A stretch of 59,307 nucleotides of DNA. Origin: a virus (Duplodnaviria > Caudoviricetes). Every line of letters starts with the position of its first letter. The first letter of the stretch is position 1. Below are positions 39,814 to 55,094 of this stretch, piece after piece. Made by a program: the position numbers and the translations under genes. Under the pieces are notes generated by a model. The model was not told the origin of the DNA. It searched no databases and worked only from the letters and a program-made list of their open reading frames with translations. The stretch lies in IMG/VR virus record IMGVR_UViG_3300017766_003746, positions 1 to 59,307 of that record, one strand, 5' to 3'.

Positions 39814-40715
39814 TCGAGCAACTACACGCCACGAAGCTGCGGCTGGCCCGTGAAACGGCCACCGGCAGCGGCAGCCCGTCGGGGGATTGGATCAGCCCGC
39901 CGACGACCGCCGCGGCGTGCACCCGCGATTTCGTGCAAACCGCGCAACGGCAAGACGCATTCCGGCAGCTACGCGACCGCCAAGTGGTGGCCGAAAGCTG
40001 GACGGTGCGAAGCAGCCACGAAATCGGGCTTGGCTGGCTGCAATGGCTGCTGCTTCCCCACCTGACCGACCGGGGCGCGGGAGTTTACACGCTGGACCCC
40101 GAAGCCGAAGGCCCCACCTTCGTGCTGGACACCGAAACCCAGCAAGGGCACCGCGCCCGCTTCCAAGGCCTGAAGCTGATCGAAATCCAACTGATTTTCG
40201 AAGAGGCCCGGGTGATTCGCATGGATTGCCAATGGGTGGGATTGCGGCGCGTGGTGCCAGGCACGGCGCTGCCCGGTGCGGCCACGGAATTCAGCGGCGG
40301 GGTGATTGCCACCTTCACGGCCGACGCCGCGGCAACCACCGGCGCGTGGGATGCCAGCCCGAGGGACACCCAGCGGGTGACCGGCCACGGTGCGCAAGTT
40401 TTCCTGCAGCGCGACATTGCCGCCGCCGACTACGGGCCCGACGGGATCCCCGAGGCACACACCCGGGGCGCGTGGCGGATTGTGGGTGAACTTTACATGC
40501 CCGAGACACCGGGGATCACCGACACCGCGTTTTCCGACGACTGGGCGGGCAAACTCGCATTCTGGTTTGGCGCTGGCACCCCGCACCTGCGGATGAACAA
40601 CGCCCACGGCTTCGTGACCGACGACGACCTGAAGGGCTACGACTTCCGGGTGCGCCGCCTCGTTTTCGAGGGGAAAAGCGACGAAAGGCGGGCGCTGATG
40701 GAATTCAGGGCGTGA
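39810..40715 (+). CDS. Second tail-tube-like protein (divergent paralogue)
   Basis: Colinear motif similarity to 26778-27959, judged by eye. Confidence 0.5.
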   Translation: MIEQLHATKLRLARETATGSGSPSGDWISPPTTAAACTRDFVQTAQRQDAFRQLRDRQVVAESWTVRSSHEIGLGWLQWLLLPHLTDRGAGVYTLDPEAEGPTFVLDTETQQGHRARFQGLKLIEIQLIFEEARVIRMDCQWVGLRRVVPGTALPGAATEFSGGVIATFTADAAATTGAWDASPRDTQRVTGHGAQVFLQRDIAAADYGPDGIPEAHTRGAWRIVGELYMPETPGITDTAFSDDWAGKLAFWFGAGTPHLRMNNAHGFVTDDDLKGYDFRVRRLVFEGKSDERRALMEFRA

Positions 40716-40745
40716 CACGTTGTCGGCGGCCATTTAGATGCGGGC

Positions 40746-41405
40746 ATGCGCAATCTCCTGACCGCCCTGCTGGCCGTGCTGCTGGCTTCATGCGCCAACA
40801 CCCCGAAGACCGGCCCGGCGCTGCCACGGCCGCCGCAGGCCGCCCCAGTGGCCCCGCTGGTGGACCGGGCACAAAGCGACAGCGCCGCCGCCCGGGAAAC
40901 CGCCGCGAAGCTGGAAACCAAGGTCGACGACTTGCACCGCGACACCGCGACCTTGAAAACGGGGATCGCAGCGGCAACCGCTGAAGCCGACCGGCTGCGC
41001 AAGCAGAAAGCCGCGACCGAAGCAGAGCTGGACGGCCTTTGGCGGATGCTGACAAACGAGCAAGAGCGGGCCGCCGCGCTTTTCCGCGAAGTGGAAGCCA
41101 GCAAGGCCCTTGCCGACCAGCACAGGCAACAACGACTGATTGCCGAAAAGCGCCTCGAGGAACTGGCAAAAGCCGCGACCGCCGCCGACGCCGAAGTGGC
41201 GACCCTGCGGCAGCAGCACGACGCCATGACGGGGCAGATCGAAGCCGCCAGGCGAACCGAAGCCGACCTTTCCGCGAAGCTTGCCAAGGCCGAGAAAGGC
41301 GCGGCCGTGGCGGCATTCATCAAGGGCACCGTGGCGCTGGTGGCCATTGGCTTCCTGCTGCTGAAACTTCTCCCCCTGCTGGCCGCCAGACTGCGGCCAT
41401 TCTGA
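40746..41405 (+). CDS. Spanin-like lipoprotein with unimolecular topology
   Basis: Lipobox LLASC, coiled coil, C-terminal TM helix; adjacent to holin and endolysin. Confidence 0.7.
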   Translation: MRNLLTALLAVLLASCANTPKTGPALPRPPQAAPVAPLVDRAQSDSAAARETAAKLETKVDDLHRDTATLKTGIAAATAEADRLRKQKAATEAELDGLWRMLTNEQERAAALFREVEASKALADQHRQQRLIAEKRLEELAKAATAADAEVATLRQQHDAMTGQIEAARRTEADLSAKLAKAEKGAAVAAFIKGTVALVAIGFLLLKLLPLLAARLRPF

Positions 41406-41432
41406 CCAACCCCAACACCCCAAACCGACGAC

Positions 41433-41801
41433 ATGAACAACTCGTTTCTGAAAACCCTCGCCACCAACTGGCGCGACCTGCTGGCCTTCGTGCTGATTGG
41501 CATCGGCATTGCCATGATTGGCGGCGTGATCGATTTCGCGGCCGGCCGCTATGCCGACAACGGATTTGCCCGCCTGATCCTTCCCCCGCTTGCCAACTAC
41601 CTGCAAGGGTTTTCCCGCTTCATGGGGGCGAGCATCACCGCCACGTTTTTGTGGATGCTGCTTTGGCCGACTGTGAACCGCTACGGCAACCACAATTTCG
41701 CCGACGGGTGGAACGCGCTTTCCCCGGCCGCCCGGTTCTTCACCTACGTGGGCTTGATCGGCGTCGCGCTGATTGCCGCCGCCATTTGCTTTGCCGCATG
41801 A
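41433..41801 (+). CDS. Holin (three predicted TM helices)
   Basis: Hydrophobic segments; ATGA overlap with the endolysin. Confidence 0.65.
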   Translation: MNNSFLKTLATNWRDLLAFVLIGIGIAMIGGVIDFAAGRYADNGFARLILPPLANYLQGFSRFMGASITATFLWMLLWPTVNRYGNHNFADGWNALSPAARFFTYVGLIGVALIAAAICFAA

Positions 41802-42472
41802 AGACCCTGCTTGCGTTTTTCGCCGCGCTTTGGAGCGGGCAGGCCAACACCCTGCCCGCCGGTGACATGCGCATCAGCCCCGAAAGCCGGGAGCTGATTC
41901 TCTACTACGAAACCGGCGGGCAAGGCTATTACCAAGCCAAGCTTCAGCGGCCGACGGTGCCACCTGGTGCCAGCGGGATCACCATCGGCATCGGCTACGA
42001 CTTGGGCTACAACACCCCGAGCCAGATCCGCGCCGACTGGGGCGGCGTGCTGCCAGCGCCGCAGGTGGATCGATTGGCGGGCGTGGCGGGCCGCACCGGT
42101 GCAAATGCCCGTGCTGCGCTTTCCCGCGTTCGTGATATTGTGATCCCATGGGAAGCCGCCGTGAAAGTTTACGAAGGCAAGACGGTGCCGAGATTCGCGG
42201 CACTGACCGTGAAGGCCTACCCGGGGATCCTCGCGACGCCACCGGACATTCAAGGGGTGATGCTTTCCACCAGTTTCAACCGTGGAACGGCTTTCAGCCC
42301 TTACGAGCGCCGCAAGGAACTGGTGTGGACCCGCGACGACATCCGGGCCGCCAGGCTGGCGAAGCTGCCCGACTACCAACTCTCCATGCGCCGCTTGTGG
42401 CCGACCATTCGGGGCCTGCAAAAACGCTACGCTGCGCATGCGGGACTCATGCAAAAAGCACTGGACCAATGA
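41798..42472 (+). CDS. Endolysin (lysozyme/pesticin-like) with N-terminal signal-like peptide
   Basis: YYE.GG..SGITIGIGYDLG..S.SFNRG; MKTLLAFFAALWSGQA. Confidence 0.8.
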   Translation: MKTLLAFFAALWSGQANTLPAGDMRISPESRELILYYETGGQGYYQAKLQRPTVPPGASGITIGIGYDLGYNTPSQIRADWGGVLPAPQVDRLAGVAGRTGANARAALSRVRDIVIPWEAAVKVYEGKTVPRFAALTVKAYPGILATPPDIQGVMLSTSFNRGTAFSPYERRKELVWTRDDIRAARLAKLPDYQLSMRRLWPTIRGLQKRYAAHAGLMQKALDQ

Positions 42473-42867
42473 CCTTGCCCGCCAAAAACACCACCAGCAC
42501 CAGCAACGCCGCCCGATTCGCCAGCTTGGAAGCCCAAGTGGGCGCGATTTCCACCACGTTGGAAGACTTCGTGACGGAATCGAAGGAATACCGGCTGCGG
42601 GCCGAGCGCAACGAAAGCCAGATTTGGGCAGCCATCAAAGAGCAGGGCGACAACCTGAACCGGGCCGTCGAGCGATTGAGCAACAACGGGCGGATTTCGT
42701 GGGGAATGATTGTTTCCACGGGCGGCTTCATTCTGGCGCTGGTGGGTGCTGGTGCCGCGGTGAACCACGCGATGAACGAAGCACGCATCAAGCAGGTGGA
42801 AATCCGGCAAGAATTCATGGCGAAGGAACTCGACCGCCACTACGAAGACTTGCGGGCGAGGAAGTGA
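42469..42867 (+). CDS. Membrane protein (coiled coil plus one TM helix), lysis-associated
   Basis: ATGA overlap; WGMIVSTGGFILALVGAGAAV. Confidence 0.65.
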   Translation: MTLPAKNTTSTSNAARFASLEAQVGAISTTLEDFVTESKEYRLRAERNESQIWAAIKEQGDNLNRAVERLSNNGRISWGMIVSTGGFILALVGAGAAVNHAMNEARIKQVEIRQEFMAKELDRHYEDLRARK

Positions 42868-42871
42868 CCGA

Positions 42872-42887
42872 TGCGAAAATTTTCGCA
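42872..42887. repeat. Palindrome A copy 11
   Basis: TGCGAAAATTTTCGCA. Confidence 0.95.
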
Positions 42888-42954
42888 TGGCGTGGAAAAG
42901 TGCCGAAAAAGGCGCAAATGAGTCTTGACGGGTGGCGGGGTTTCGGGCCAGATT
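42872..42954 (+). promoter_or_regulatory. Composite promoter of the replication block: A, 12 bp, motif B (42900-42915), then TTGACG (42925-42930)
   Basis: Same module as at 6396 and 55079. Confidence 0.65.
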
Positions 42955-42963
42955 CGGCCCGCT

Positions 42964-43686
42964 ATGACACCACAACCGATTGACCAGATTCTGGCACTGC
43001 CCGACAAGGCGGTGGTTTACTGCTTCGAAGGCCAAGTCACCAAGGCATTCAAGCGAAGCGACGGCACCAACGCGCAAGGGCCATGGAGCATTGAAAGCTT
43101 CCTCCTGAAAGACGCCACGGGGGCCGAAATCAAGCTGATGCTGAAAGACAGCGACCCCGCGGGCTGGCAGCCCGGCACCGCGGTGCGCCTCGAGGCATGG
43201 AAGGGCGACAAGGGGTTTTCCGGCCTTTACGCCGCCGACGACGAATACAAGGGCGAAGTGCGCCGGATCCTGCGGGCCACGAAGACGTGCACCATCACGT
43301 TGCTGAATGGCGGCCAACAGCACGCGCCACAGCAGGCCGCACCCCAGCAGCAGGCCCAAGCGCCGCAGCAACGGCCACAAGGCCAGCAGCAGCCGCCACA
43401 GCAGCAGCAACCGCCACGCCAGCAAACCACCGCGCCGGCCGCGACCGATGAAGATCGGGAAGCCCGCAAGGCGCTGAACGATGCCAAGCGCACGATTCTG
43501 CAAATCACCAACTTGCACCTGCTTTGCGCCAAGGTGGTGGAAACCGTCGAGGCCCCGGCCTTCAAGAAAGCCACCGGGCACGACATGACCGAAGGCCAGC
43601 GCCAAGGTGCCACCGCCAGCGTGTTCATCGAATCGTGCAAAAAGGGGCTGGTGCACGCCATGCCAACCACCCCGCTGGAAGCCTGA
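42964..43686 (+). CDS. OB-fold ssDNA-binding-like protein with Gln-rich linker
   Basis: EGQVTKAF..W..FLLKDATG.EIKL resembles RPA-type OB folds. Confidence 0.55.
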   Translation: MTPQPIDQILALPDKAVVYCFEGQVTKAFKRSDGTNAQGPWSIESFLLKDATGAEIKLMLKDSDPAGWQPGTAVRLEAWKGDKGFSGLYAADDEYKGEVRRILRATKTCTITLLNGGQQHAPQQAAPQQQAQAPQQRPQGQQQPPQQQQPPRQQTTAPAATDEDREARKALNDAKRTILQITNLHLLCAKVVETVEAPAFKKATGHDMTEGQRQGATASVFIESCKKGLVHAMPTTPLEA

Positions 43687-43713
43687 ACCCCAACCCCAAA
43701 CTTTTCCCACATC

Positions 43714-45846
43714 ATGACGACCAACAACACCGCCGCACCGGCCGCCCGCATCAGCGTGGTGGATTTCACGAACATCAAAGGATGCACCGCCAGGCACGAA
43801 CTGCCCGAGCTGGTGGCCATCGTAGCGCCCAACGGCATGGGCAAAACCGCGATTTCCGACGCGCTGCAACTGGCCTTGACCGGGAGCCACGCCGACTTCG
43901 GCAAGCAGGGCAAGGCGCTGATGGCGCTGGCCAGTGGCCCGGCCATGGACGTGGCCGCCACGCTGACCGACGGCCGCAAGATCGCCCGAAGCTGGCGCAT
44001 GGATGCCAAGGGCAGCGTGAAGGCGACCGCAGACGAGCCCGAGGGCTGGCCATCGGCCGACGTTTCCATGACGTTCAACCCGCGCACCTTCGTGGCGCTG
44101 AATGATCGCGAGCGGGTGGCCACGCTGCTGCGCTTGGCAGGCCAGACGACGCCGACCACGGCGAGCGTGGAAGCCCTGCGGGACATCCTCGAGGAAAAGG
44201 CCACGGGTGCCAAGCGCGTGACGCTTTCCGACTTGGATCCATTCGGCCCGAAGATGGCCGACGCCGGGACATTCGTCGAAGCCGCCGAAAGCGAGCTGGT
44301 GGAAGCCCGCAAAGCCCACAAGCGCGACATCACGCGGCTGGAAGCAGCCGTGAAAGGGTTGGAAGACGCCGCCCGGGGATCGACCGCACCCACAAAGGTC
44401 GAAGCCGCCGAAGTGGAAGCCATCGCCGCCGAAGTGCAAAAGCTGGCTTCAGAGCACGCCCGGCTTTCCGAGCGCCACAGGGCCGCCGCACGCCTTCGCC
44501 AGCGCGTGGCCGAGATTGGCACCGCCCCCGAGTGGACCGAAGACGACGACGCGGCACTGGTGCGCGTGACCGAAGACTTGCGGAAGCTGACCGAAGCAGA
44601 GCAGGCCGAGCAAGCCGACCGCATGGCGCTGCGCAACGTCCTCGCGCAAGGCCCCGAGCCCGAGGAAGTGGCCGAAGCCAACGAACGCCTCGCCACGGCA
44701 CTGCCCGACAAGCCGGAAATGGAACCCGCAGCGATTGCCGCGGGGATCCGCGAAGCCGAAGACGAACTGGCCACCGCCCGCGTGCGCATCACCGACTTGG
44801 AAGCCGAAGTGGCGAAGCTGAACGGCCAACTTGGCATGGAGTGCTGCCCGACCTGCGGCGCGGCCGGCGACGACCTCAAGGCCCGCTTGGCGGAAACGCT
44901 TCAGCCCTACCTTGAAACCGCGGTGATCCGCCTCGGCAACAACCGCCAGCGCGAAATCGACGCCACCAAGCGCATTGCCGAGCTGAAGACCATCGGCCAA
45001 GGCTGGCACGACTACGACGCCGCGGTGAAGGCCTGCGAGGAAGCCCGGGAGATTCTGGACCGCGACGAACGGGTGGAACGCGACGCCGCCGAAATTCGCG
45101 CCCGGATCGATGCCCGCGCCGCTGAATTCGTGGACCCGGCCACCAACAGCCGACCCAACCGGCAAGAGCTGGAAAGCCAGCACGCCGACCTTCAGCGCCG
45201 CAGCTCAAACGCCCGCGCCCTGAAAGAACTTGGCGACGTGCCAACCGCCGACGAAGTCGACGCGCTGATGCGGCTGGTGGGCGAAAACGAGCACGCCCGC
45301 GGTGCCAAGGAAGCGGAGCTGCGCACGCTGAAGGAAGGGCTTCGCGTGTGGCAGGAATTCGGGGCACAGGAAACCCACATCACGCGGATGCGCGAAGAGC
45401 TGGAAGACGCCAGGCGCAAACTGGAAACCACCGAAGAGCTGATCACCGCCACGCGGGCCGCCGGTGCCGACCTTGCCGCGGCGATTGCCGGGCCGATTGG
45501 CGAGGGCCTGCGATTCTTCACCGACGGGGTGCTGCCCGGTGCCGTGAAGGTTGACGCCGCGCTGGGGATCTTCCTCGAGACGGCAGAGCGTGGCTTGCGG
45601 CCATTCGATGCCTTCAGCGGATCCGAAAAAGCGGTGGTGGGTTTCGCCTTGGCGGCCACGCTGGCGGCGCACACGCCGCTGAAGATCGCGCTGCTTGACG
45701 AAGCCAGCACGATGGACCGCGCACGGAAAACCGCCTTCCTGCAACGGGTGGCCGAAGCCGTGGAAACCGGCCGCCTCGCGCAAGCCGTGGTGATCGACCA
45801 CGACGTGGCAGCCTACGCCGCACCATGGCAAACGATTTCCCTCTGA
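43714..45846 (+). CDS. Rad50/SbcC-like SMC-family ATPase
   Basis: APNGMGKT Walker A, coiled coil with CPTC zinc hook, FSGSEK signature, LLDE Walker B. Confidence 0.9.
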   Translation: MTTNNTAAPAARISVVDFTNIKGCTARHELPELVAIVAPNGMGKTAISDALQLALTGSHADFGKQGKALMALASGPAMDVAATLTDGRKIARSWRMDAKGSVKATADEPEGWPSADVSMTFNPRTFVALNDRERVATLLRLAGQTTPTTASVEALRDILEEKATGAKRVTLSDLDPFGPKMADAGTFVEAAESELVEARKAHKRDITRLEAAVKGLEDAARGSTAPTKVEAAEVEAIAAEVQKLASEHARLSERHRAAARLRQRVAEIGTAPEWTEDDDAALVRVTEDLRKLTEAEQAEQADRMALRNVLAQGPEPEEVAEANERLATALPDKPEMEPAAIAAGIREAEDELATARVRITDLEAEVAKLNGQLGMECCPTCGAAGDDLKARLAETLQPYLETAVIRLGNNRQREIDATKRIAELKTIGQGWHDYDAAVKACEEAREILDRDERVERDAAEIRARIDARAAEFVDPATNSRPNRQELESQHADLQRRSSNARALKELGDVPTADEVDALMRLVGENEHARGAKEAELRTLKEGLRVWQEFGAQETHITRMREELEDARRKLETTEELITATRAAGADLAAAIAGPIGEGLRFFTDGVLPGAVKVDAALGIFLETAERGLRPFDAFSGSEKAVVGFALAATLAAHTPLKIALLDEASTMDRARKTAFLQRVAEAVETGRLAQAVVIDHDVAAYAAPWQTISL

Positions 45847-45856
45847 TGGGGGGAAG

Positions 45857-45887
45857 GTCGCCCGGGAAACCGGGCGCGGATTGAAAC
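45857..45887 (+). CRISPR. Solitary type I-C-like CRISPR repeat, unit 1
   Basis: GTCGCCCGGGAAACCGGGCGCGGATTGAAAC: GTCGC start, 7-bp hairpin, GGATTGAAAC end. Confidence 0.8.
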
Positions 45888-45919
45888 AAACCCTCTGAAT
45901 GGAGGCCGGTGCATAGCAA

Positions 45920-45935
45920 TGCGAAAATTTTCGCA
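45920..45935. repeat. Palindrome A copy 12
   Basis: TGCGAAAATTTTCGCA. Confidence 0.95.
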
Positions 45936-45945
45936 TGCCCGTTTG

Positions 45946-45984
45946 GGGCGGGGATTCTTCGGGATTCCCGCCCTTTTTCTTTTT
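45946..45984 (+). terminator. Intrinsic terminator with UUCG loop
   Basis: GGGCGGGGATTC-TTCG-GGATTCCCGCCC followed by TTTTTCTTTTT. Confidence 0.85.
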
Positions 45985-46036
45985 GTGCCGGAAATGGCAC
46001 TTTTTCACTTGTCAAGGTAAGTGTTCCCCCTACGCT
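45985..46036 (+). promoter_or_regulatory. Motif B (45985-46000) plus promoter TTGTCA-N16-TACGCT
   Basis: GTGCCGGAAATGGCAC ends 8 bp before the -35. Confidence 0.65.
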
Positions 46037-46044
46037 TGGCCCCG

Positions 46045-47589
46045 ATGCAACTCACCGATGAGCAAGTGAAGGTGCGGGACAGCGAAGGCCACCTGGTGGT
46101 CGTCACCGCAAGGGCAGGTAGCGGGAAAACCGCCACCATGGTGCAACGGATCCGCGCCGAAATTGAGCGTGGAACCAACCCGCGAATGATTGCGGCCATC
46201 ACCTACACGGTGACCGCGGCACGCGAACTTCAGCACCGGCTTGGCTGCGAGCTGGGGCACTGCGGCACGCTTCACGGCTACGTGATGCGATGCCTTCAGG
46301 TGGACCCCGCGACCATCGCCGACGAAGACGAAGTGGCCGAGCTGGCGAAGCAGGCCTGCGGGGCGCTGAACATTCGCGGGCTGACCAACAAAGGGCTGCT
46401 GCGGGCCATGGAAGACGTGGTCGAACACCCGGGCGACATCGGCGTGGCGCTGCGCTACGTGCGGGCCGAGCTGAAGGCCCGGGGCCGCACCACGTTTTCG
46501 CTGGTGCTGCGGGAGTTTCACGAATGCCTGATGCGAGGCGAGCACCGCCAGAAATTCGCGTTGCTGGTGGTCGATGAAGCGCAAGACACCGCGCCCATCG
46601 ATGCCGAGATTTTCGAGGCGATGGACGCCGACAAGCGGATTTTCATCGGCGACCCGCACCAAGCGATTTTCGGCTTTCGCGGGTGCACGGATCGGTTTTT
46701 CCGCAAGATGGCACGCAAGGCCAGCGACTACCTGCCACTTTCCACCACCTTCAGGTGCCGCCGGGCGATCTGCGACGCCGCCAACGCGCTGCTGCAAGGC
46801 GGGCCGGTCACGATGATGCGGAGCATTCACGCCGACGGCGACGGCTACATCGAGGCGCTGCGCTACCGCAACGAAGCCGAAGAGCTGAAGGGCATTCTCG
46901 CGTGGGCGAAGCAGTGCAACGGCACCCGCGCCGTGCTTTGCCGCTACAACGCCGACGTGGCCCGCGTGGGCGCGTGGCTGCTGGCCAACGGCATGAAGGT
47001 GCGCATGCGCCGTGCCGAGCCCGACAAGCTGCTGGTGGCCGCCCTGCGGCTGCTGGCGAGCAAGCGCGACGCCAACCTGCTGGCCGCCCTGCGGAGTGAA
47101 CTCGGCGAGCGTGCGGCAAAGCTGCCGCTGGTGGCCGATGCCGACGCCGTCGAGCTGCTGGCGCGAAGCGTGCGCGATGGCATGGGAAGCGTGCCGGCCG
47201 CGCTGAACATGCTCGGGGTGCCCGCCGAAGTGGCAGCCGATGCCGCGCCCGAGAGCGTGACCGTTTTCGAGGCGCTGGAAGCTTCCCTGCGGGGCGAGCG
47301 CCCGGGCGAAGCCGACGGCACCGAAGTGGTGGTGGGAACCGTGCACAGCGCGAAGGGGCGCGAATTCGACGACGTGCTGGTGGCGAGCTGCTACGCGCCA
47401 GGCAAGACCGCGGATCCCGACGAAGAGGCGCGGATTTTCTACGTGGCCATCACCCGGGCGAGAAACACCGCCACCGTGACCTTTGCCGACCGCCGGATTG
47501 ACCCGCGCACCATGGCGGAAACCGAAGGAACCCCCAGCCCATTCATCGCCGCGGCGAACATCGAAACCACCGAAGACAAGCACGCATGA
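46045..47589 (+). CDS. UvrD/Rep-family SF1 helicase
   Basis: ARAGSGKT, VDEAQD, GDPHQAIFGFRG, TVHSAKGREF, FYVAITRA. Confidence 0.92.
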   Translation: MQLTDEQVKVRDSEGHLVVVTARAGSGKTATMVQRIRAEIERGTNPRMIAAITYTVTAARELQHRLGCELGHCGTLHGYVMRCLQVDPATIADEDEVAELAKQACGALNIRGLTNKGLLRAMEDVVEHPGDIGVALRYVRAELKARGRTTFSLVLREFHECLMRGEHRQKFALLVVDEAQDTAPIDAEIFEAMDADKRIFIGDPHQAIFGFRGCTDRFFRKMARKASDYLPLSTTFRCRRAICDAANALLQGGPVTMMRSIHADGDGYIEALRYRNEAEELKGILAWAKQCNGTRAVLCRYNADVARVGAWLLANGMKVRMRRAEPDKLLVAALRLLASKRDANLLAALRSELGERAAKLPLVADADAVELLARSVRDGMGSVPAALNMLGVPAEVAADAAPESVTVFEALEASLRGERPGEADGTEVVVGTVHSAKGREFDDVLVASCYAPGKTADPDEEARIFYVAITRARNTATVTFADRRIDPRTMAETEGTPSPFIAAANIETTEDKHA

Positions 47590-48374
47590 GCGACCGCATT
47601 TTTCAAAACATGGATGGCATCAACGCCATTTTCATTCACAGCAGCGTGGACGATGCGGGCCTTGACCCGTTCGCATTTCGGGTGCTGATGCATCTGAGCC
47701 GACGCGCAAACCACAAGGGCATGGCATGGCCGGGCATTGAAAGCATGGTGGAGACTACCGGCATCAGTGAACGCCGGATCCGCGAAGCCCTTCGAGAATT
47801 GGAGCGCCGGAAAATGCTTGTGACCACCCAAGCGCCGGGGAAGGGCAACCGGAATTTTTATGAACTTACGGCCGCCAGCGAGTGGATTTTAGAACCGGCA
47901 CCACGTGCCGATTCGGAAGAATGCGGCACCACGTGCCGATTGGAACCGGCACCACGTGCCGATTCCTCTACTAGAGAAGGAAATCCAAGTGAAGGATATC
48001 CAGAAAAGGCGCAAGCGCCTGCTTCTTTGGGTAGAAATTCTAAAAAGTTTTTAGCGCCGGAAGCATGCGCCGCGATTCTGGACGAACTGGGGGACACCTT
48101 CAAAGCCCACCCGGTGTTTTGCCTGCGGCTGGGTGAATTCGTGGCCGAGCGATTCAAGACCCGCCGGGTGATGACCGAAGAGGCCGCCCACCGGTTGGCG
48201 GTGAAATTCGCGAAGCACGACCCCGAGACATGCGCCACGGCGCTGGAAACGAGTTTGGATCGCGGATGGACCGGGGTTTTCCCCGAAAGCGTGAAGGGTG
48301 ACCGCCGGGGATCGAGCGGGCCGCACCTGAGTGCGCAAGCAACCTTGGGAGATTGGGGGTTTGGCGAAGCATGA
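47586..48374 (+). CDS. Replication initiator (N-terminal wHTH)
   Basis: AWPGIESM..TGISERRI..LRELE; internal iterons; followed by a DnaC-like gene. Confidence 0.8.
   Translation: MSDRIFQNMDGINAIFIHSSVDDAGLDPFAFRVLMHLSRRANHKGMAWPGIESMVETTGISERRIREALRELERRKMLVTTQAPGKGNRNFYELTAASEWILEPAPRADSEECGTTCRLEPAPRADSSTREGNPSEGYPEKAQAPASLGRNSKKFLAPEACAAILDELGDTFKAHPVFCLRLGEFVAERFKTRRVMTEEAAHRLAVKFAKHDPETCATALETSLDRGWTGVFPESVKGDRRGSSGPHLSAQATLGDWGFGEA
47896..47964 (+). repeat. Three 18-bp iterons CGGCACCACGTGCCGATT (probable origin)
   Basis: Copies at 47896, 47924 and 47947, followed by an AT-richer tract to about 48055. Confidence 0.85.
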
Positions 48375-49054
48375 ACCTGACCGACCCCACCCGCTGCATG
48401 CTTTGCAGCAAGCCCCACCTGCAAACCGAAGAGCACCCGACATGCCCCGAGTGCGAGGCCTTGCCCGAGATTGACACCAGCGCCGACGAAGAGCGCCGGA
48501 ATCGCGAGCGTGCCGAAGCCAGGGAACGCCTTTGGCAAACGAAGGTGCCCCGGGAATACCGCAACACCGAACTGGCGAAGCTTCCGACCCGTGCGGCCGA
48601 GCTTTTCCCACGGGTTGGCAACTGGGATTTCGCGACCGGCAAAGGCCTGACCCTGATCGGGCCGACCGGCCACGGGAAAACCCGGCTGGCGGTGCGGGCG
48701 ATGAAAAGCGCCTTCGACCGCGGGGCCCGAGTGGAAATCCTGCGGTGCGCCGAAGTGCGCATGGAACTTTGGGAAAGCTTCGCGGCTGCCAGCAAGCTGG
48801 TGGCCCGTGCGAGCAAGCCCGACGTGCTGCTGCTGGATGACCTCGGGCAAGGTGCGAAGAGCGAACAAATCGACGAAGTGACCTTGGCCATCCTCGAGGC
48901 GCGAACCGCCGAAGGCCGCCCGACCCTGACAACCACGCAATTCAACGACACCCGACTGATCGAACGATTTTACAGGCCCGAAACCGGCGAAGCCATTGTG
49001 CGCCGCGTGGGCCAGCAATTCGCCACCATCCTCAACCTGACCCCAAAGCCATGA
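48371..49054 (+). CDS. DnaC/IstB-like AAA+ helicase loader
   Basis: GPTGHGKT, LLLDDLG, PTLTTTQ. Confidence 0.88.
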   Translation: MNLTDPTRCMLCSKPHLQTEEHPTCPECEALPEIDTSADEERRNRERAEARERLWQTKVPREYRNTELAKLPTRAAELFPRVGNWDFATGKGLTLIGPTGHGKTRLAVRAMKSAFDRGARVEILRCAEVRMELWESFAAASKLVARASKPDVLLLDDLGQGAKSEQIDEVTLAILEARTAEGRPTLTTTQFNDTRLIERFYRPETGEAIVRRVGQQFATILNLTPKP

Positions 49055-49419
49055 CACCAAACGCCCGTGCGAAAATTTTCGCATCCCTGATTCTTTCCGT
49101 GCCGCTGCCAGCTTCCGCGCTGGTGCTGATTGCCATCGGCCCGCCATTCCCTGAAGGGTTTTTCGTAGCGTGCGCGGCTTTCACCACCGTGCTGGCGCTG
49201 GCGCTTGCCGGTGCCCGCGACTTCGACGGGATCCGCCGCGACTTCCACGGCGGTGCGCCAGCCTACTGGGTGCCGTGCACGGTGTGGCTGCTGGCGTGCA
49301 TCTTTGCCGCTGCCGCCGGGTGGCTGCCGATGGCCGTCACGCTGGTGCGCTGGGTGGTTTTTTCGGCTGGGGCGCTGCATGCGCTTGCGGATTTCGGGTG
49401 CCGTGTCAAAAACCGCTGA
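49051..49419 (+). CDS. Membrane protein
   Basis: Three to four hydrophobic segments. Confidence 0.65.
   Translation: MTPNARAKIFASLILSVPLPASALVLIAIGPPFPEGFFVACAAFTTVLALALAGARDFDGIRRDFHGGAPAYWVPCTVWLLACIFAAAAGWLPMAVTLVRWVVFSAGALHALADFGCRVKNR
49068..49083. repeat. Palindrome A copy 13 (inside CDS)
   Basis: TGCGAAAATTTTCGCA. Confidence 0.95.
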
Positions 49420-49422
49420 TCC

Positions 49423-49980
49423 ATGAACACCCTGACACCAGACGAAACCGCCATCATGCACGACGTTGGCACCCTTATGGTGCGCACCATGGCGCTTGCC
49501 GCCCTGAAGCGCGACGAAGTGCGGATCGACAGCCGGGACATGCTCGGCCGGCCGCGCCACGTGCGAGTGAACATCAACGCCGACCCCGACGACGTGCCGC
49601 TGATTCTTGGCGGCCGTGGCACCAACGCCAAGACGGTGCGCGAACTCGCGGCGCTGGCGTGCCCTGCGGGTGCCTACATCGATTTGCACCTGGTGACCGC
49701 CGAAGAGGCGGGCGAGCGCCAGCCGCGTGATTTCGGCGACAGCACGGAATTGCCGCCCGACCTGGTGCGCGACATCGCCGACGTGGTGGCCCGCTGGCAC
49801 TTGGCGCTTGGCGACGACATGCCGGTGGTGCGCCACGAAGCAACGCCGCGCTGCGACATCTGGCTGGTGCAAGGCCGGAACATTCCGGGCAGCGCCATGG
49901 GGAGCCTACGAAGGCTGATCGGGTGGGCCTGCAAGGTGCGTGGCCGCAACGGATTTGTGGAATGGGAAAACCCACGCTGA
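49423..49980 (+). CDS. KhpA-like KH-domain RNA-binding protein
   Basis: DEVRID..NADPDDVPLILGGRGTNAKTVREL parallels KhpA D.GKVIGK.GR.AKAIRTL. Confidence 0.6.
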   Translation: MNTLTPDETAIMHDVGTLMVRTMALAALKRDEVRIDSRDMLGRPRHVRVNINADPDDVPLILGGRGTNAKTVRELAALACPAGAYIDLHLVTAEEAGERQPRDFGDSTELPPDLVRDIADVVARWHLALGDDMPVVRHEATPRCDIWLVQGRNIPGSAMGSLRRLIGWACKVRGRNGFVEWENPR

Positions 49981-50369
49981 ACACCCTGACCCGTGGTCGC
50001 CTGACCGCCTACCCGCACGACAACGTGCTGCGGTGGCGCGTGCAATCCAACAGCCGCCCCGACATCGAACACGTGGTGGACCTCGGCACGTGGCACGGCA
50101 ACGGTTCATGCAGTTGCGAGCACTTCGAATTCCGGTTGGCACCGTTGCTTCGCGACGGCATCGGCCGGGCGGGAAAGGCGACCCGCTGCGGCCACATCAT
50201 GGTGGCGCGTGAAGCCTTCGCCAACCACATGATTCAGATCCTGAGTGCGAAGGCCGCAGAGCTGGCCCGAGCCACCGAACCTTGCCCCGAGTGCCAGGGC
50301 GATGCCGAAGACATCGAAGGCAACCCCTGCCCGTGCTGCGAAGGTGCGGGGGCTATTTCAGCAGCATGA
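49962..50369 (+). CDS. SWIM-type Zn-finger protein
   Basis: CSCEHF..CGHI plus CPECQG..CPCCEG. Confidence 0.7.
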   Translation: MGKPTLNTLTRGRLTAYPHDNVLRWRVQSNSRPDIEHVVDLGTWHGNGSCSCEHFEFRLAPLLRDGIGRAGKATRCGHIMVAREAFANHMIQILSAKAAELARATEPCPECQGDAEDIEGNPCPCCEGAGAISAA

Positions 50370-50385
50370 TGCGCAAATTTTCGCA
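50370..50385 (+). repeat. Palindrome A copy 14, C variant (abuts a stop codon)
   Basis: TGCGCAAATTTTCGCA. Confidence 0.93.
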
Positions 50386-50396
50386 CCCCCACGACC

Positions 50397-50882
50397 ATGG
50401 CCGGAAAAAACAATGGAACCGCGTTTGAACGCGACCTGCAGACGATCTTCGACGCCTACCTTTCCCAAGGCCGGGCAAAAATTCACAAGGTGGATCCGCC
50501 CACGAAGGTGCTCGGCAGGAAGGTGCTTTTCCTGCCCAACGACTGGCTGGACTTCGCGGGCACGTGGACCGAACGCGGGGGCCGTGCGCTGGTGATCGAG
50601 GCGAAGACCACCCAAGAACCGACGCTGCCCCTCGGCGGTGAACGCGGGCTGACAAAAACCCAGTGGAACAACGCCATGGACTGGCAGCGGGCCGGTGCCG
50701 TGGTGCTGCTGCTTTGGGAATTCCGGGGCGAAATCCGGGTGACCACGCCCGCCATGGCGATGGCTGCTTGCCGCGAAAATGAGCGCAAAAGCCTGCGGTG
50801 GTGCGACGCCCACAAACTGCCCGTCGGCCATGGGTGGGTGAGATTTGACCCACTGACATGGGCAGCACGCTTGACAGACTGA
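50397..50882 (+). CDS. RecU-like Holliday junction resolvase
   Basis: GTAFE..Y..A.IHK..P..DFAG..IEAKTT. Confidence 0.8.
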   Translation: MAGKNNGTAFERDLQTIFDAYLSQGRAKIHKVDPPTKVLGRKVLFLPNDWLDFAGTWTERGGRALVIEAKTTQEPTLPLGGERGLTKTQWNNAMDWQRAGAVVLLLWEFRGEIRVTTPAMAMAACRENERKSLRWCDAHKLPVGHGWVRFDPLTWAARLTD

Positions 50883-50905
50883 CCGAAACGGGCCACAAAA
50901 GGCGC

Positions 50906-51199
50906 ATGGACACTCCAACGACCCCCAAGGAACTGAGCGACACCCAGCTTGCACCGCTGGTTGCATGGGCGCATTCCAACCGCGGCGCGATTGGCCGGAT
51001 CGCTGAACGCATGGCCAAAAAGAGCGGCCAAGCCGTGAACCGCCACATGGTGGGCCGGTGGCTTGCCCAAGAGCCTGACAAGCGGATCCAGCCGAGCCAC
51101 GGCTACGCGCTACTCATGGCCGACGTGGTGGCCGAGCTGCAAGACGAAGACCGCCAGCTTGATGCCGAGCGCCGCCGCACGGAACCCGCGCACGCCTGA
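50906..51199 (+). CDS. Small HTH-like protein, candidate regulator
   Basis: GAIGRIAERM..VNRHMVGRWL..P resembles Cro/XRE folds; preceded by TTGACA (50871) and a motif-B variant. Confidence 0.5.
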   Translation: MDTPTTPKELSDTQLAPLVAWAHSNRGAIGRIAERMAKKSGQAVNRHMVGRWLAQEPDKRIQPSHGYALLMADVVAELQDEDRQLDAERRRTEPAHA

Positions 51200-51234
51200 T
51201 TTTCCCAACCACCCCCAACCCCAAAACGACGACA

Positions 51235-52263
51235 ATGCAAGACCACCCGATTGCGGGACTTTTCCCGCTGATTCCCGATGCCGAGCTGCAAGAGCTGGCC
51301 GAATCCATCCAACGAAGCGGACAGCGCGACGACATCGTGCTTTTCGAAGGCAAGATCCTTGACGGCCGCAACCGCTTTCGAGCGTGCGGCATTGCCGGGG
51401 TGAAGCCGCGCACCCGGGTTTTCGACCCGAAGAAAGACGGGCCGAGCCCGCTCCGCTTCGTGCTGGACCTCAACCTTTCCCGCCGCCACCTGAGCACCAG
51501 CCAACGCGCCGCGATTGCGGCCGAAAGCCTGAAGATCATGGAAAGCATGGCGAAGGCCGCAGCGGGTGCCAGCGCCACGCCGACGAAGCCCGCCCAGCTG
51601 AAGGCCTACGACCCGAGCGAAGCCGCCGACGAAGAGGGCGAAGCCGTGGTGACCGGGCCGACGGTGCCCCAGGCTGAAGCCATCGTCGAAGCCGGGAACC
51701 CCGACGACGACGTGCTGCCGGAAGACCGGCCGGAAGAAACCAAGCCGACGGTGGCAGAAACCGCGGCATCCATGGGCGTTTCCAAGCGGAGCGTCGAGCA
51801 CGCCAAGGGCCTGACCCCCGAGCACCTCGAGGAAGTGAAGAGCGGCAAGAAAACGCTTCACGCCGCCAAGCAGGAAGAGGAAGCCGAAAAGCTGAAGGCA
51901 CAGCGCAAGGAAGCCATCAAGCGCGTGGCCAAGGTGTGCGGGAAGGAATTCGCCGACGCCATGGCCCGCAACACCATCCTGAAGACCGTGAAGGAACTGG
52001 CGGCATTCCTCGCGTTGGATGACGACCAGATGCGGGCCGTTCAACCGCTGGTTTCGACCGGCTGGAAGGTGAAGAAAGCCCTTGCCCACGCGCTGGACGC
52101 CATCACCGGCGACAGCACGATTTCCGACCTCCTGAACAAAGCCATCGCGGCCGGCGGCGATGAATTCACCGTGGTGGTGAATGGCTGGGAAGTGACCGCC
52201 ATCAACGTGGGAGCCAGCCACAACAGCGACGGCACCCCGGCGAAGAACCCCGCGAAAAAGTGA
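51235..52263 (+). CDS. ParB/Spo0J-like protein with HTH
   Basis: LAESIQ..G.RD.I..ILDGRNRFRAC..NL.RRHL..SQRA; VAETAASMGVSKRSVEHAK HTH. Confidence 0.85.
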   Translation: MQDHPIAGLFPLIPDAELQELAESIQRSGQRDDIVLFEGKILDGRNRFRACGIAGVKPRTRVFDPKKDGPSPLRFVLDLNLSRRHLSTSQRAAIAAESLKIMESMAKAAAGASATPTKPAQLKAYDPSEAADEEGEAVVTGPTVPQAEAIVEAGNPDDDVLPEDRPEETKPTVAETAASMGVSKRSVEHAKGLTPEHLEEVKSGKKTLHAAKQEEEAEKLKAQRKEAIKRVAKVCGKEFADAMARNTILKTVKELAAFLALDDDQMRAVQPLVSTGWKVKKALAHALDAITGDSTISDLLNKAIAAGGDEFTVVVNGWEVTAINVGASHNSDGTPAKNPAKK

Positions 52264-52269
52264 CACCTT

Positions 52270-52300
52270 GTCGCCCGGGCGACCGGGCGCGGATAGAAAC
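52270..52300 (+). CRISPR. Solitary type I-C-like CRISPR repeat, unit 2
   Basis: GTCGCCCGGGCGACCGGGCGCGGATAGAAAC, 28/31 identical to unit 1. Confidence 0.72.
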
Positions 52301-52324
52301 GAAAACCACCAACGCACCAACACC

Positions 52325-52591
52325 ATGCCGAAAGCCACCACCGCCAAGAAAGCCGCCCGCCGCCGCAAAGTGATTTGCCGCGCCCTGACCTGCAACGTGC
52401 CGACCAAAAGCGCGAAATGGGATGCGCTCATGAGATTGAGCACGCCCGAGCTGAAGAACCTGCTTCGTGCCGCCGGGATCGGGATCCCGAAGGAAAAAGC
52501 CGCCATGGCCGACCGCCTTGCCGAGCATGAAGCCGTGGCGGTGGCCGTGACGACCGAAGCGGTCGTATTCGGCCGACCCGGCGCGAAATGA
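52325..52591 (+). CDS. Small basic hypothetical protein
   Basis: ATG after a C/A-rich leader, 24 nt after repeat unit 2. Confidence 0.65.
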   Translation: MPKATTAKKAARRRKVICRALTCNVPTKSAKWDALMRLSTPELKNLLRAAGIGIPKEKAAMADRLAEHEAVAVAVTTEAVVFGRPGAK

Positions 52592-52633
52592 TTCCTGAAG
52601 CCGCCCATTCCGGGGGGGATCGGCGGCAAGGAA

Positions 52634-52673
52634 AAGCGCCCCGGGTGGGAGACTGCCCGGGGCGCTTGATTTT
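52634..52673 (+). terminator. Probable intrinsic terminator
   Basis: AAGCGCCCCGGGTGG-GAGA-CTGCCCGGGGCGCTT followed by GATTTT. Confidence 0.6.
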
Positions 52674-52700
52674 CCCCCAACCTGATGACCAGCCAAGACG

Positions 52701-54344
52701 ATGAAATTTACCCTCCGAGACTACCAGCAGCAGTTTTGCCGCGCCGTTGTGAACGCCTTCACCGTGGGCGCTGAAGGCCAAGGCCCGTTTGACAGGGTGC
52801 TGGGTGTGGCCGCCACAGGGGCGGGAAAAACCATCATGGCCGCCGCGCTGGTGTGGTGGATCACACGCCACCCGCGCCGCACCGGCCGGGTGCTGATGCT
52901 GGCCGACACCGACGAGCTGGTGCAGCAGGCCGCCGACAAGATTCTGGCGTCCACGGGGCTGATTCCCGACATCGAAAAGGCCGCCAGCATGGCCGACCTC
53001 GCCAGCGCCGTGGTGGTGGGCAGCATTCAGACCTTGAGCCGCCGCCTCGAGCGATGGCCCGCGGATCAATTCGACCTGGTGATTGCCGACGAAGCGCACC
53101 TTTCAATGGCCCGCAACTGGCAAAAGGTGCTGAAGCACTTCGGCGACGGTGGCGCGTGGGTGCTGGGGATCACCGCCACCCCCGAGCGCGGCGACGGGCA
53201 AAAGCTGATGCGCTACTATGAGCACATAGCCGCCGAAATTGGCCTTTTCGACCTGATCAACCGCGGGCACTTGGCACCCATCACCGTGCAAGTGTGCCCG
53301 CTGCAAATCGATTGCACGAAGCTGGCCAGCAAGACTTCGGGGCTGAACAAAGGCGACTTCGACGACGGCGAGCTGGAAGAGGCAATCGAGCCTTACCTCG
53401 AGGCCATTATTGACGAATGGCACACACACGCCGCCGACCGCAAGACCCTGATTTTTCACCCGAGCATCCGCGCCAGCCAGAAATTCACGGAAATGCTGCA
53501 AGCCCGAGGGGTGGCAGCCGCCCACGTTTCCGGGCAATCGAAAGACCGCAAGGCCGTGCTGAAGGCCTACGAAGAGGGGCGTTTTCAGGTGCTGAACAAC
53601 GCACAGCTTTTGACGAAGGGCTACGACTGCCCGGACATTGCATGCGTGATCAACCTGCGGCCGACGAAGAGCCGCACCCAGTATCTGCAAATGGTGGGCC
53701 GGGGCACGCGCACCGCGCCGGGGAAAACCGATTGCCTGCTACTGGACTTCCTTTGGCAATTCCAAGAGCTTGGCATCATGCGGCCGGCCGCGCTGGTGGC
53801 CAAGGGTGACGAGCACGAAGCCGCGGTGGCCAGTGTCATGGAACGTGGCAAGCGCCTGACCCTCGGCGAAGCCAGCGAAGAGGCCGAGCGGGAACGCGAA
53901 CAACTGATCATCCGCCAACTGAAGCGGGCGGCCGAGCGTGGGGGCCGCCAGGTTTACGACGCCCGGGTGCTGGGTGCCGTGCTTCACCAACCCGAGCTGA
54001 TCGACTACGAACCACGGGCGAAGTGGGAAAAGCTGCCGCTGACCCCGGGCCAGCGCCGGTTTCTGGAAAACAACGGGATCGACCCCGGCACCGTGCGCGG
54101 GCTCGGCCACGGCGCGAAGATCATGCACACGCTGGCCAACCGCAGGAACCACGGCATGGCCACGCCCAAGCAGGTGGCGGCCCTTGCCATGGCCGACGTG
54201 CCACAGCCGCACCAAATGACCTTCAGCAGCGCCTTGGAGCGCCTGCAAGCCCTGATCGACGCCGCGCCAGCCGAAGGGCTGGAAGCACCGGCGAAGGCCT
54301 ACAGCGGGCCAGCCGTGGCGCGTGGCGTGCGAATCGATGATTGA
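52701..54344 (+). CDS. SF2 DEAH-box helicase
   Basis: LRDYQ, ATGAGKT, DEAH, TATPER, QMVGRGTR. Confidence 0.93.
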   Translation: MKFTLRDYQQQFCRAVVNAFTVGAEGQGPFDRVLGVAATGAGKTIMAAALVWWITRHPRRTGRVLMLADTDELVQQAADKILASTGLIPDIEKAASMADLASAVVVGSIQTLSRRLERWPADQFDLVIADEAHLSMARNWQKVLKHFGDGGAWVLGITATPERGDGQKLMRYYEHIAAEIGLFDLINRGHLAPITVQVCPLQIDCTKLASKTSGLNKGDFDDGELEEAIEPYLEAIIDEWHTHAADRKTLIFHPSIRASQKFTEMLQARGVAAAHVSGQSKDRKAVLKAYEEGRFQVLNNAQLLTKGYDCPDIACVINLRPTKSRTQYLQMVGRGTRTAPGKTDCLLLDFLWQFQELGIMRPAALVAKGDEHEAAVASVMERGKRLTLGEASEEAEREREQLIIRQLKRAAERGGRQVYDARVLGAVLHQPELIDYEPRAKWEKLPLTPGQRRFLENNGIDPGTVRGLGHGAKIMHTLANRRNHGMATPKQVAALAMADVPQPHQMTFSSALERLQALIDAAPAEGLEAPAKAYSGPAVARGVRIDD

Positions 54345-54347
54345 ACG

Positions 54348-54581
54348 ATGACACCCCCCGAAATCATGCACACGCCAGACGACCACAAGGAAGACGGCAC
54401 CCCCGTTTTCGATTCCATCCAATGGGAACGCCCGATGGAACTGCAACACGCGCTGATGGCAGGCACCATGCCGGTGCCCTGCTGGATCCGCATCGGCCGC
54501 ACCTGCATGCGGATCACCACCGAAGACGTGCAAGCAGTGTGCCGCGGCATCCTGCTTTCCAGCCTGATGCGTGCCGAATGA
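54348..54581 (+). CDS. Hypothetical protein
   Basis: ORF within operon. Confidence 0.55.
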   Translation: MTPPEIMHTPDDHKEDGTPVFDSIQWERPMELQHALMAGTMPVPCWIRIGRTCMRITTEDVQAVCRGILLSSLMRAE

Positions 54582-54775
54582 CCGCTGAAGAGCCAGTGCC
54601 AGGCCCCCACAACGTGGAGATTCAAGACATCCCCGGCCACTGGGATTCCGTTTTCGTGGCCGACGACCTGGTGGAAGCCGCACGGGTGGCTTCCTACATC
54701 GTGAAGCGCGACTGGCGGGTGCGGCAAGACGAACGCCGCGTGCGCATCCTTGCAGCCGACGGCCGCGAATGGTAA
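54578..54775 (+). CDS. Hypothetical protein
   Basis: ATGA overlap. Confidence 0.55.
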   Translation: MTAEEPVPGPHNVEIQDIPGHWDSVFVADDLVEAARVASYIVKRDWRVRQDERRVRILAADGREW

Positions 54776-54784
54776 AGCGTGGGC

Positions 54785-55078
54785 ATGAACCACGACAGCG
54801 TGCCACTGGTGATCTTCGAAACTGGCGAAGAGGCCGTGAAACACGGGCCGGGCGGCGCATCGTGGGCCGACGACGAAGGCCACCTTTTCGTGATGATTCC
54901 GGGCACTGGGCCGCACCTTGACGCCATCCCCGTGACCCGCGACCAGCAACGGGCACAAACCGAAGCCCGCACGTGGCTTCTGACCGGCGACCGCATGAAG
55001 CCCACGCTTCACCCGAGCTTGCACGTGCCAGACCGGTGGCATGGATGGCTGCGCGACGGCCATCTGGTTTCCTGCTGA
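54785..55078 (+). CDS. DUF6527-like protein
   Basis: W.LTGD..KPTL.PSL..WHGWLRDG; family name recalled, not searched. Confidence 0.55.
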   Translation: MNHDSVPLVIFETGEEAVKHGPGGASWADDEGHLFVMIPGTGPHLDAIPVTRDQQRAQTEARTWLLTGDRMKPTLHPSLHVPDRWHGWLRDGHLVSC

Positions 55079-55094
55079 TGCGAAAATTTTCGCA
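55079..55094. repeat. Palindrome A copy 15 (abuts a stop codon)
   Basis: TGCGAAAATTTTCGCA. Confidence 0.95.

Follow-up and report, generated by a model that had tools for sequence, protein, structure and literature searches.

This study concerns two short elements that resemble CRISPR repeats in the genome of a tailed phage (Duplodnaviria; Caudoviricetes), IMG/VR virus record IMGVR_UViG_3300017766_003746. The window, that is, the whole stretch of DNA that was analysed, is the entire record of 59,307 bp. The first element, termed SRU1 after solitary repeat unit (SRU), is a putative mimic of a type I-C repeat and occupies positions 45857-45887 of the + strand: its 31-nt sequence is GTCGCCCGGGAAACCGGGCGCGGATTGAAAC. 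It begins 10 nt (45847-45856) past the TGA stop codon (45844-45846) of an open reading frame (ORF) for an SMC/SbcC-like ATPase, and is followed by a 31-nt linker (45888-45918, + strand), an 18-bp palindrome, ATGCGAAAATTTTCGCAT (45919-45936), and an intrinsic terminator (45945-45984, + strand). The first-pass annotation of this DNA had described a repeat-like unit at this position, and its sequence and coordinates were exact; the order of a 31-nt segment, an 18-bp palindrome and a strong UUCG terminator behind the repeat was also found as described.

SRU1 consists of a 5' overhang GT (2 nt), a 7-bp stem (CGCCCGG/CCGGGCG) closed by a GAAA loop, and an 11-nt tail, CGGATTGAAAC. Cleavage by Cas5c is predicted after position 45876. 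The unit had been called solitary. This holds in that no neighbouring repeat or array is present; however, a second copy, SRU2, lies at 52270-52300 on the same strand (GTCGCCCGGGCGACCGGGCGCGGATAGAAAC). It differs from SRU1 by three mismatches, two in the loop and one in the tail: the stem is the same, the loop is GCGA, and the tail, CGGATAGAAAC, has one change from that of SRU1. Here the Cas5c cut is predicted after position 52289. A search of the window with the unit pattern, allowing up to three mismatches, gave these two matches against 0.00 expected from 100 shuffles. Three other GGATTGAAAC-like sites exist in the window, none with a hairpin; one of them (55128) is within a promoter module.

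The two units are separated by 6,413 nt with genes between them, and neither is followed by a partial repeat. A CRISPR array or mini-array has at least two repeats that flank a spacer at regular spacing, and the pair does not have this arrangement. The previous statement that cas genes and an array are absent was borne out: tblastn with six type I-C Cas proteins gave a best E value of 0.12 in the window, and no array was found there by repeat search or Rfam. Both units are thus intergenic, on a mobile element, with no neighbouring repeats or cas genes, which is how a solitary repeat unit is defined.

SRU2 is located 6 nt past the stop codon of a gene for a ParB-like protein of 342 amino acids (51235-52263, + strand; PHROG 21315/4715) and 24 nt ahead of the ATG at 52325 that opens the downstream cistron (52325-52591, + strand), which encodes an 88-amino-acid protein; this ATG is conserved in the three phages compared below. 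A longer frame starting with TTG would run through SRU2. Frames were read by eye, and the start codon of this longer frame is missing in the closest relative; therefore, SRU2 is taken as non-coding. The 88-residue protein itself has a basic N-terminus, and no Shine-Dalgarno sequence is visible on inspection in front of its gene. It gave no family match in Pfam or PHROGs, and it is kept in all three related phages, including the one that has no repeat unit.

The closest relative, G001, is an IMG/VR contig of 59,519 bp, whose SbcC-like, ParB-like and helicase proteins share 79, 89 and 91% amino acid identity, respectively, with those of the window. It was the only relative returned by a search with the helicase. 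It carries both SRU1 and SRU2, at the same sites as the window. Over the 29 positions from stem to tail, all bases are identical except for one base of the SRU1 loop (GAAA in the window, GCAA in G001), and the sole difference in SRU2 is the first base of the overhang. In the region around the units, the mean column identity between the two genomes is 82%, with insertions and deletions beside the units. The three loops observed, GAAA, GCAA and GCGA, all fit G-N-R-A, and we take them to belong to the GNRA class.

Both units can be parsed as 2 / 7 bp / 4 / 7 bp / 11, and each forms its hairpin in the centroid fold. In characterised Cas5c substrates, a stem of 7 nt with a 5-nt loop is preceded by a 2-nt overhang and followed by one of 11 nt (PMC8524198). 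The geometry of a type I-C substrate is therefore present, with a loop of 4 rather than 5 nt. In the same source, recognition by Cas5c involves the cut site, the base of the stem and the downstream nucleotides, and neither the loop nor the 5' overhang.

Natural counterparts were retrieved with a relaxed pattern, that is, the same stem, any loop of 3-10 nt and the same GGATTGAAAC, which gave at least 120 loci in bacterial genomes (L005-L124). Among the matches listed, 93 are arrays with a period of 71-72, and the repeat measures 33-35 nt from stem to end in all 93; the listed loci with at least three copies have 56 distinct predominant repeats. Many of the array repeats have the form GCAT-CGCCCGG-CCTCACGG-CCGGGCG-CGGATTGAAAC, the Thiobacillus type, in which the lower stem and the 11-nt tail are letter-identical to those of SRU1 and two more stem pairs are added. 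In general, the natural I-C repeats (Thiobacillus, Nitrosospira, Rhodoferax, Chromatiaceae and others) share with the phage units the 7-bp lower stem, the 11-nt tail in its C-GGATTGAAAC form and the strand logic. They differ in having 33-35 nt from stem to end, two or three extra stem pairs and other loops, and in being arrayed, whereas the phage unit is solitary and spans 29 nt from stem to end, or 31 nt when the GT overhang is counted.

The genes beside these arrays are those of type I-C systems. In the Nitrosospira locus L032, NCBIfam models identified Cas5c (204.9 bits; cut-off 85), Cas8c (593.9 bits; cut-off 218.65) and Cas7c (365.2 bits; cut-off 182.25), together with Cas4. In the Thiobacillus locus L072, Cas7c (307.2 bits), Cas1c (483.5 bits; cut-off 385), Cas4 and Cas2 were identified, and Cas8c is partial and below its cut-off. 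By tblastn over at most 8 kb per locus, cas matches were obtained for 47 of the 93 array loci among the matches listed, and matches to Cas5c, Cas8c or Cas7c for 26 of them. The assignment to type I-C, which had been made in the first-pass annotation, is supported because stem and tail are shared with arrays whose neighbours are type I-C genes, and the Cas5c geometry described in PMC8524198 agrees with it. It should be mentioned that these arrays were retrieved by a pattern derived from the phage unit itself. A chance resemblance of the units to the I-C repeat is considered negligible, because identity in two blocks is combined with conservation. The phage units represent a trimmed repeat that keeps what Cas5c reportedly reads, the upper stem having been exchanged for a tetraloop.

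The features downstream of SRU1 had been regarded, together with the repeat, as one dedicated unit. In the centroid fold of the region downstream of the SbcC-like gene, there are four separate hairpins: the repeat, a small hairpin formed by part of the linker, the palindrome and the terminator. The terminator has a stem at 45945-45974 (13 pairs, 8 of them GC) with a TTCG loop, and its T-run extends to approximately 45984; it is the strongest terminator-like site of the + strand between 42.5 and 53 kb, where two weaker sites of the same strand are also present. The linker is not conserved: it measures 31 nt in the window and 20 nt in G001, and can be aligned only in the half on the palindrome side. 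Immediately behind the repeat tail, at the very position of a type I seed, the window linker is longer by 9-10 nt. The proposed dedicated unit is not supported: in the sister phage, the segment is 20 nt long and diverged on the repeat-proximal side.

The palindrome is a motif of wider use. Copies of RTGCGMAAATTTTCGCAY are found at 200, 6395, 6779, 7223, 13607, 20741, 24637, 27974, 36145, 42871, 45919, 49067, 50369 and 55078 (14 by one count, 13 by another); by the strict definition, there are 14 in the window (G000), 11 in G001 and 2 in the more distant relative G002. They are mostly intergenic, often overlap a TGA stop codon and are mostly away from the repeat units. Four copies (6395, 42871, 45919 and 55078) have a GYGCCG-loop-GGCRC hairpin behind them and then a promoter-like -35 hexamer (TTGACT, TTGACG, TTGTCA and TTGACA at the four sites), and these sites may be read as promoter modules. 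The dyad is accordingly not a part of the repeat unit as had been supposed, but a 14-copy motif of promoter modules, and it is probably an operator or signal of a phage regulator. The module at 42871-42960 (+ strand; palindrome, GC hairpin and TTGACG) is likely the promoter of a two-gene operon that would end in SRU1, although a consensus scan recognised no sigma-70 promoter there or at SRU1 and SRU2. The terminator, too, had been counted with the repeat; the terminator and the promoter downstream of it exist without any repeat in G002. From this context of palindrome, promoter module and terminator, everything past 45918 is assigned to an inter-operon boundary and not to the repeat. SRU1 thus seems to close an operon that apparently starts at about 42.9 kb, and SRU2 seems to lie inside the next operon.

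This arrangement bears on the possibility, which we regard as unlikely, that SRU1 is a viral CRISPR RNA (crRNA)-like guide (Cracr or crlRNA) that loads into the I-C Cascade of the host. Such a guide would shut down a promoter of the host (that of cas, creT or another defence system) by partial pairing beside a TTC or TTA protospacer-adjacent motif (PAM), or would target a competitor. Host I-C solitary units with one repeat-like element give rise to crlRNAs of 48-50 nt with an 11-nt handle and a 3' end in a hairpin loop (10.1101/2024.12.27.630466), viral Cracrs against type I-C have been reported, and type I-F viral Cracrs have spacers shorter than those of host RNAs (10.1101/2024.10.29.618823). 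SRU1 is like these RNAs in having one repeat-like element, a spacer-like stretch and a hairpin, and the distance from 45877 to the palindrome loop is 51 nt, so that the geometry of a guide fits in the window phage; the palindrome at 45919-45936 could incidentally act as the 3' hairpin. In G001, however, the predicted product is approximately 40 nt by our own count, and the PAM-proximal end, which ought to hold the seed, is wholly different between the sister phages, with a segment of 20 instead of 31 nt. In addition, the 3' hairpin belongs to a motif of 14 copies found mostly elsewhere, and SRU2 has no downstream hairpin at all but runs into a coding start.

A Cracr or crlRNA is recognised by nine or more matching PAM-proximal positions in its spacer-like part, the target being a promoter (cas, creT or defence) or a host crlRNA. 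This defining PAM-flanked seed match was not found for the phage units, in which the stretch is also unconserved between sister phages. TTC followed by 9 nt of the SRU1 or SRU2 segment, with position 6 free, had no match in about 890 kb of loci, mostly I-C arrays; the G001 segment of SRU1 had two, a chance-level count. No match of the linker longer than 12 nt was detected elsewhere in the window, in the same loci or in the phage collection. The earlier suggestion of a guide against a competitor or a host promoter therefore found no protospacer and no TTC-flanked seed for the 31-nt segment in these loci and phages. This exclusion is not strong, because the target search took in other I-C loci and not the cas locus of the true host.

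A second relative, G002, was reached through the ParB-like protein. It is 41.7 kb long and 80% complete, and the amino acid identities with the window are 60% for the SbcC-like protein, 68% for the helicase and 76% for the ParB-like protein. No unit within three mismatches was found in this genome, nor any CRISPR-like Rfam match at E values up to 1. The spacer between its SbcC-like and helicase genes still has GCATAGCA and the terminator, as well as the small GC hairpin and a promoter-like stretch, and lacks both the unit and the palindrome; the terminator after the SbcC-like gene is thus present in G001 and in G002. The spacer downstream of its ParB-like gene retains the leader and the start of the 88-amino-acid gene, with GACAGAAAC and no hairpin at the SRU2 site. 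This GACAGAAAC could be an eroded trace of SRU2 or the ancestral state. On an otherwise syntenic backbone, the units are present either both or not at all, a pattern that looks like that of an accessory, host-dependent function.

The possible trace in G002 is relevant to the view that the units are left over from host repeats captured, for example, by recombination with a host array, and are now decaying or neutral, or that they are sites acting at the DNA level, such as targets for recombination with host arrays, with no function as RNA. Integration into arrays was an early suggestion for solitary repeat units (PMC10651486), and the tail change of SRU2 has not been seen in the sampled arrays. 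We nevertheless judge this view highly improbable: both copies are unchanged from stem to tail in two phages that are about 18% different around the units, the stems show a regular shortening to the canonical 7 bp and no random degradation, and the phage has terminal repeats.

The position of the units within their operons raises a different possibility, namely that they serve the RNA metabolism of the phage, with any effect on CRISPR being secondary. They would then act as GNRA-capped hairpins that protect upstream 3' ends, or as processing sites that uncouple cistrons through host Cas5c or another RNase. Their location agrees with this, since both lie 6-10 nt past stop codons inside operons and not behind promoters; the loops are always G-N-R-A, and SRU2 precedes a gene in which, in our reading, no Shine-Dalgarno sequence is visible. 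A stabilising hairpin, however, needs no 11-nt CRISPR tail, and this tail is exact in SRU1 and has one change in SRU2, in two phages. Moreover, G002 expresses the same genes without units, and it seems improbable that core expression would rely on a dispensable host nuclease. A role in RNA metabolism is thus considered distinctly unlikely.

The interpretation that we favour, with moderate confidence and from sequence comparison and analogy, is that SRU1 and SRU2 are RNA anti-CRISPR (Racr)-type decoys that mimic type I-C repeats and are transcribed with early genes. The conservation of both units amid diverged flanks might reflect selection and has been taken here to argue for such decoys. RNA anti-CRISPR activity has been demonstrated for phage-borne solitary repeat units (Camara-Wilpert et al. 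2023, PMC10651486). In that work, RacrIF1 is cut by Cas6f and starts the assembly of an aberrant complex of Cas6f and Cas7f, and a non-targeting crRNA also lowers interference, by competition. RacrIC1, from a prophage of Bifidobacterium pseudocatenulatum, is located 11 nt after acrIC5, is co-transcribed with it, and alone rescues a phage targeted by type I-C. The Racr-type interpretation is supported because the placement of SRU1 and SRU2, 10 and 6 nt behind a stop codon, is shared with RacrIC1. Among the mechanisms proposed initially, a Racr-like decoy is the best-fitting known one, as judged by this analogy.

Each phage unit resembles RacrIC1 in being an isolated mimic of an I-C repeat that follows the stop codon of a protein gene at about 10 nt (11 nt there, 10 and 6 nt here), on an element with no cas genes or array; co-transcription was shown there and is expected here. 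Unlike RacrIC1, whose upstream gene encodes AcrIC5, the units follow genes for an SbcC-like ATPase and a ParB-like protein, are dispersed in two copies, and have a sequence of the proteobacterial CGCCCGG...CGGATTGAAAC group. The function of RacrIC1 has been demonstrated, whereas that of SRU1 and SRU2 is predicted. The units also resemble the viral solitary units of Faure et al. 2019 (cited in PMC10651486) in being intergenic and repeat-like, with no partner repeat and no cas genes, and in coming from viral contigs of a database of the same kind. With the viral CRISPR mini-arrays covered in PMC11656645, they share a host-type repeat on a virus without cas genes; unlike those, they lack a partner repeat that would enclose a spacer, and related viruses gave no match.

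The decoys would work as follows. Each unit would be transcribed within an early operon for replication or recombination, SRU1 in the 3' untranslated region of the SbcC-like gene, ahead of the terminator, and SRU2 between the ParB-like and 88-amino-acid genes. In a host with type I-C, Cas5c would recognise the base of the stem and the 11-nt tail and cut after 45876 and 52289. Cas5c would then remain on the tail, now a 5' handle, and Cas7c and Cas8c would assemble on phage RNA that guides nothing. As a result, fewer Cas subunits would remain for the phage-targeting crRNAs of the host. All steps beyond transcription are inferred.

In an Rfam search of the whole window, the CRISPR-DR9 family matched SRU1 with 29.6 bits (E = 0.013) and SRU2 with 24.5 bits (E = 0.43), with no other CRISPR-like match over the 59 kb, and it also matched SRU1 of G001 (30.5 bits; E = 0.0068). 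That an independent model selects just these two places in the window speaks for the decoys. Several observations weigh against them. Both window units are below the gathering score of 45 bits, because the loop is shorter and there is a 2-nt gap at the 5' end. The expected similarity to known CRISPR repeats is present in I-C arrays, as an identical stem and tail, and falls short in Rfam. No array with a repeat as short as 29 nt was found among the 93 listed, and the exact unit, with loops of 3-5 free bases, had no match in 185,579 species genomes. It had none in the metagenome scans, and in viral contigs it was found in the sister phage only. The tail variant of SRU2, GGATAGAAAC, was absent behind this stem in all 401 sampled genomes of the order of G003. 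Since GACAGAAAC occurs in G002 without a hairpin, part of the SRU2 tail could be ancestral leader sequence.

Among 1,859 spacers cut from 120 I-C loci of the matches listed, none matched the phage or the available parts of its relatives (L001-L004) above chance level (at best 17 nt at 100% identity in the window; the longest overall was 20 nt at 95% in L004); there is therefore no sign that the phage meets I-C immunity. Whole-genome DNA comparison of 40000-59307 of the window with 5 and with 222 genomes gave only short, weak matches; in the latter search, only two candidates per genome were scored, and the method is therefore insensitive to spacers. Expression and neighbourhood add further points. 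The consensus scan recognised no promoter of its own for either unit, and both would form part of long mRNAs, in contrast to RacrIF1, a small RNA in which the inhibitory part is upstream of the cut and acts in a Cas6f-dependent manner (PMC10651486). No acr-like gene was detected among the 10 neighbouring ORFs in Pfam and PHROG scans, for which no Acr-specific library was used.

A further role might be coupled to sequestration by the decoys. The units could turn host Cas5c into an mRNA-processing enzyme of the phage and thereby act as a sensor of I-C immunity, a proposal that we consider very unlikely. After cleavage, the messages for the SbcC-like and ParB-like proteins would end in a GNRA-capped hairpin and the downstream RNA would begin with a CRISPR 5' handle, so that early expression would be rewired only in hosts with an active I-C system.

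Short-loop units are also found elsewhere. Loops of only 3-6 nt occur at eight loci among the matches listed (L007, L015, L022, L027, L044, L061, L065 and L071), all of which are single and none arrayed, and the relaxed pattern occurs in seven viral contigs. In two of these contigs, L129 and L130, a short unit is directly behind promoter-like hexamers, and L134 is a real array. The occurrence of short-loop versions on other viral contigs was counted in favour of the decoys. Given the single short-loop loci and the viral examples, trimmed lone I-C-like units seem to recur on mobile and chromosomal DNA. A survey of IMG/VR3 with SRUfinder (PMC10651486) reported 2,103 viral solitary repeat units at a score threshold of 41.1 bits, and the present virus record may already be among them. 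Many of the viral units in that source are directly behind a predicted promoter, as are L129 and L130; SRU1 and SRU2 are not.

Among the other short-loop sites, L133:8442-8560 (IMGVR_UViG_3300034358_000028) has a tandem pair of units at a distance of 53 nt, behind which partial tails (GATTGAAAC pieces) recur just ahead of a gene start; this looks like a multi-copy decoy. At L130:5537-5720 (IMGVR_UViG_2831813989_000001), a promoter-like site and a short unit are followed by three copies of a different repeat of approximately 28 nt (CCTCAGATTGCCGTCAGGCGTTGAGCAC-like), so that one transcript may carry two types of repeat. A conserved element of approximately 110 nt was observed in six proteobacterial genomes (L022:5142-5261 on the + strand, L027, L044, L061, L065 and L071), from Thiomonas, Halochromatium, two Thiocystis and two metagenome-assembled genomes, with different flanking genes in each. 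It comprises TTGAAA...GATAAT promoter-like hexamers, a hairpin (CACGGAAG...CTTCCGTG) and a short-loop I-C-like repeat ending in GGATTGAAAC, and matches no Rfam family at the gathering score; it could be a chromosomal or prophage gene family for a Racr or crlRNA. At L007:6046-6074 (- strand), the tail of a single unit, AGGATTGAAAC, abuts the ATG of what is presumably a peptide-deformylase-like ORF, named from its first residues, and could double as its ribosome-binding site. At L005:1663-1697 (+ strand), a full-length single repeat lies ahead of the start of a gene that, again from its first residues, we take to be EF-Tu-like.

As for the genome that carries the units, the record has direct terminal repeats of 123 bp and a completeness rating of 100%. 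The GC content is approximately 64% genome-wide, nearly all likely genes are on the + strand, and no tRNA gene was found in the 59,307 bp. The terminase shares at most 46% identity with those of cultured phages, its matches being spread over many genera, and the phage is therefore regarded as uncultured. The SbcC-like ATPase upstream of SRU1 (43714-45846, + strand; 710 amino acids) corresponds to PHROG 1499/77 and to Pfam SMC_N and AAA_23, both Pfam matches being under the cut-offs; it had no match in the phage collection. Two neighbouring ORFs of the + strand (542 and 545 amino acids; 31968-35230) coincide with the one stretch of low GC content in the genome (0.557, compared with about 0.64) and may be exchanged host-recognition genes.

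Repeat-based counter-defence by viruses is a known and reviewed kind of system (PMC11656645), and units of the SRU or Racr kind have been described and validated, including for type I-C; the present finding thus adds to what is known without altering it. What the analysis adds is the second copy, the placement inside operons behind genes that are not anti-CRISPR genes, the orderly reduction of the repeat of the 37-nt-repeat I-C branch to a 7-bp/GNRA/11-nt core, and the presence or absence of both units together. If functional, SRU1 and SRU2 would be RNA anti-CRISPRs against this proteobacterial branch, often encountered in Thiobacillus, nitrifiers and purple sulfur bacteria, from an uncultured phage of lytic type. 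Since the units have been pared down to a 7-bp stem with a GNRA loop and an 11-nt tail, they suggest what the smallest element read by Cas5c looks like, and such an element could serve in the design of small I-C inhibitors or processing tags. Because the units are present or absent together among these relatives, they would offer a clean natural comparison of what a decoy is worth to a phage.

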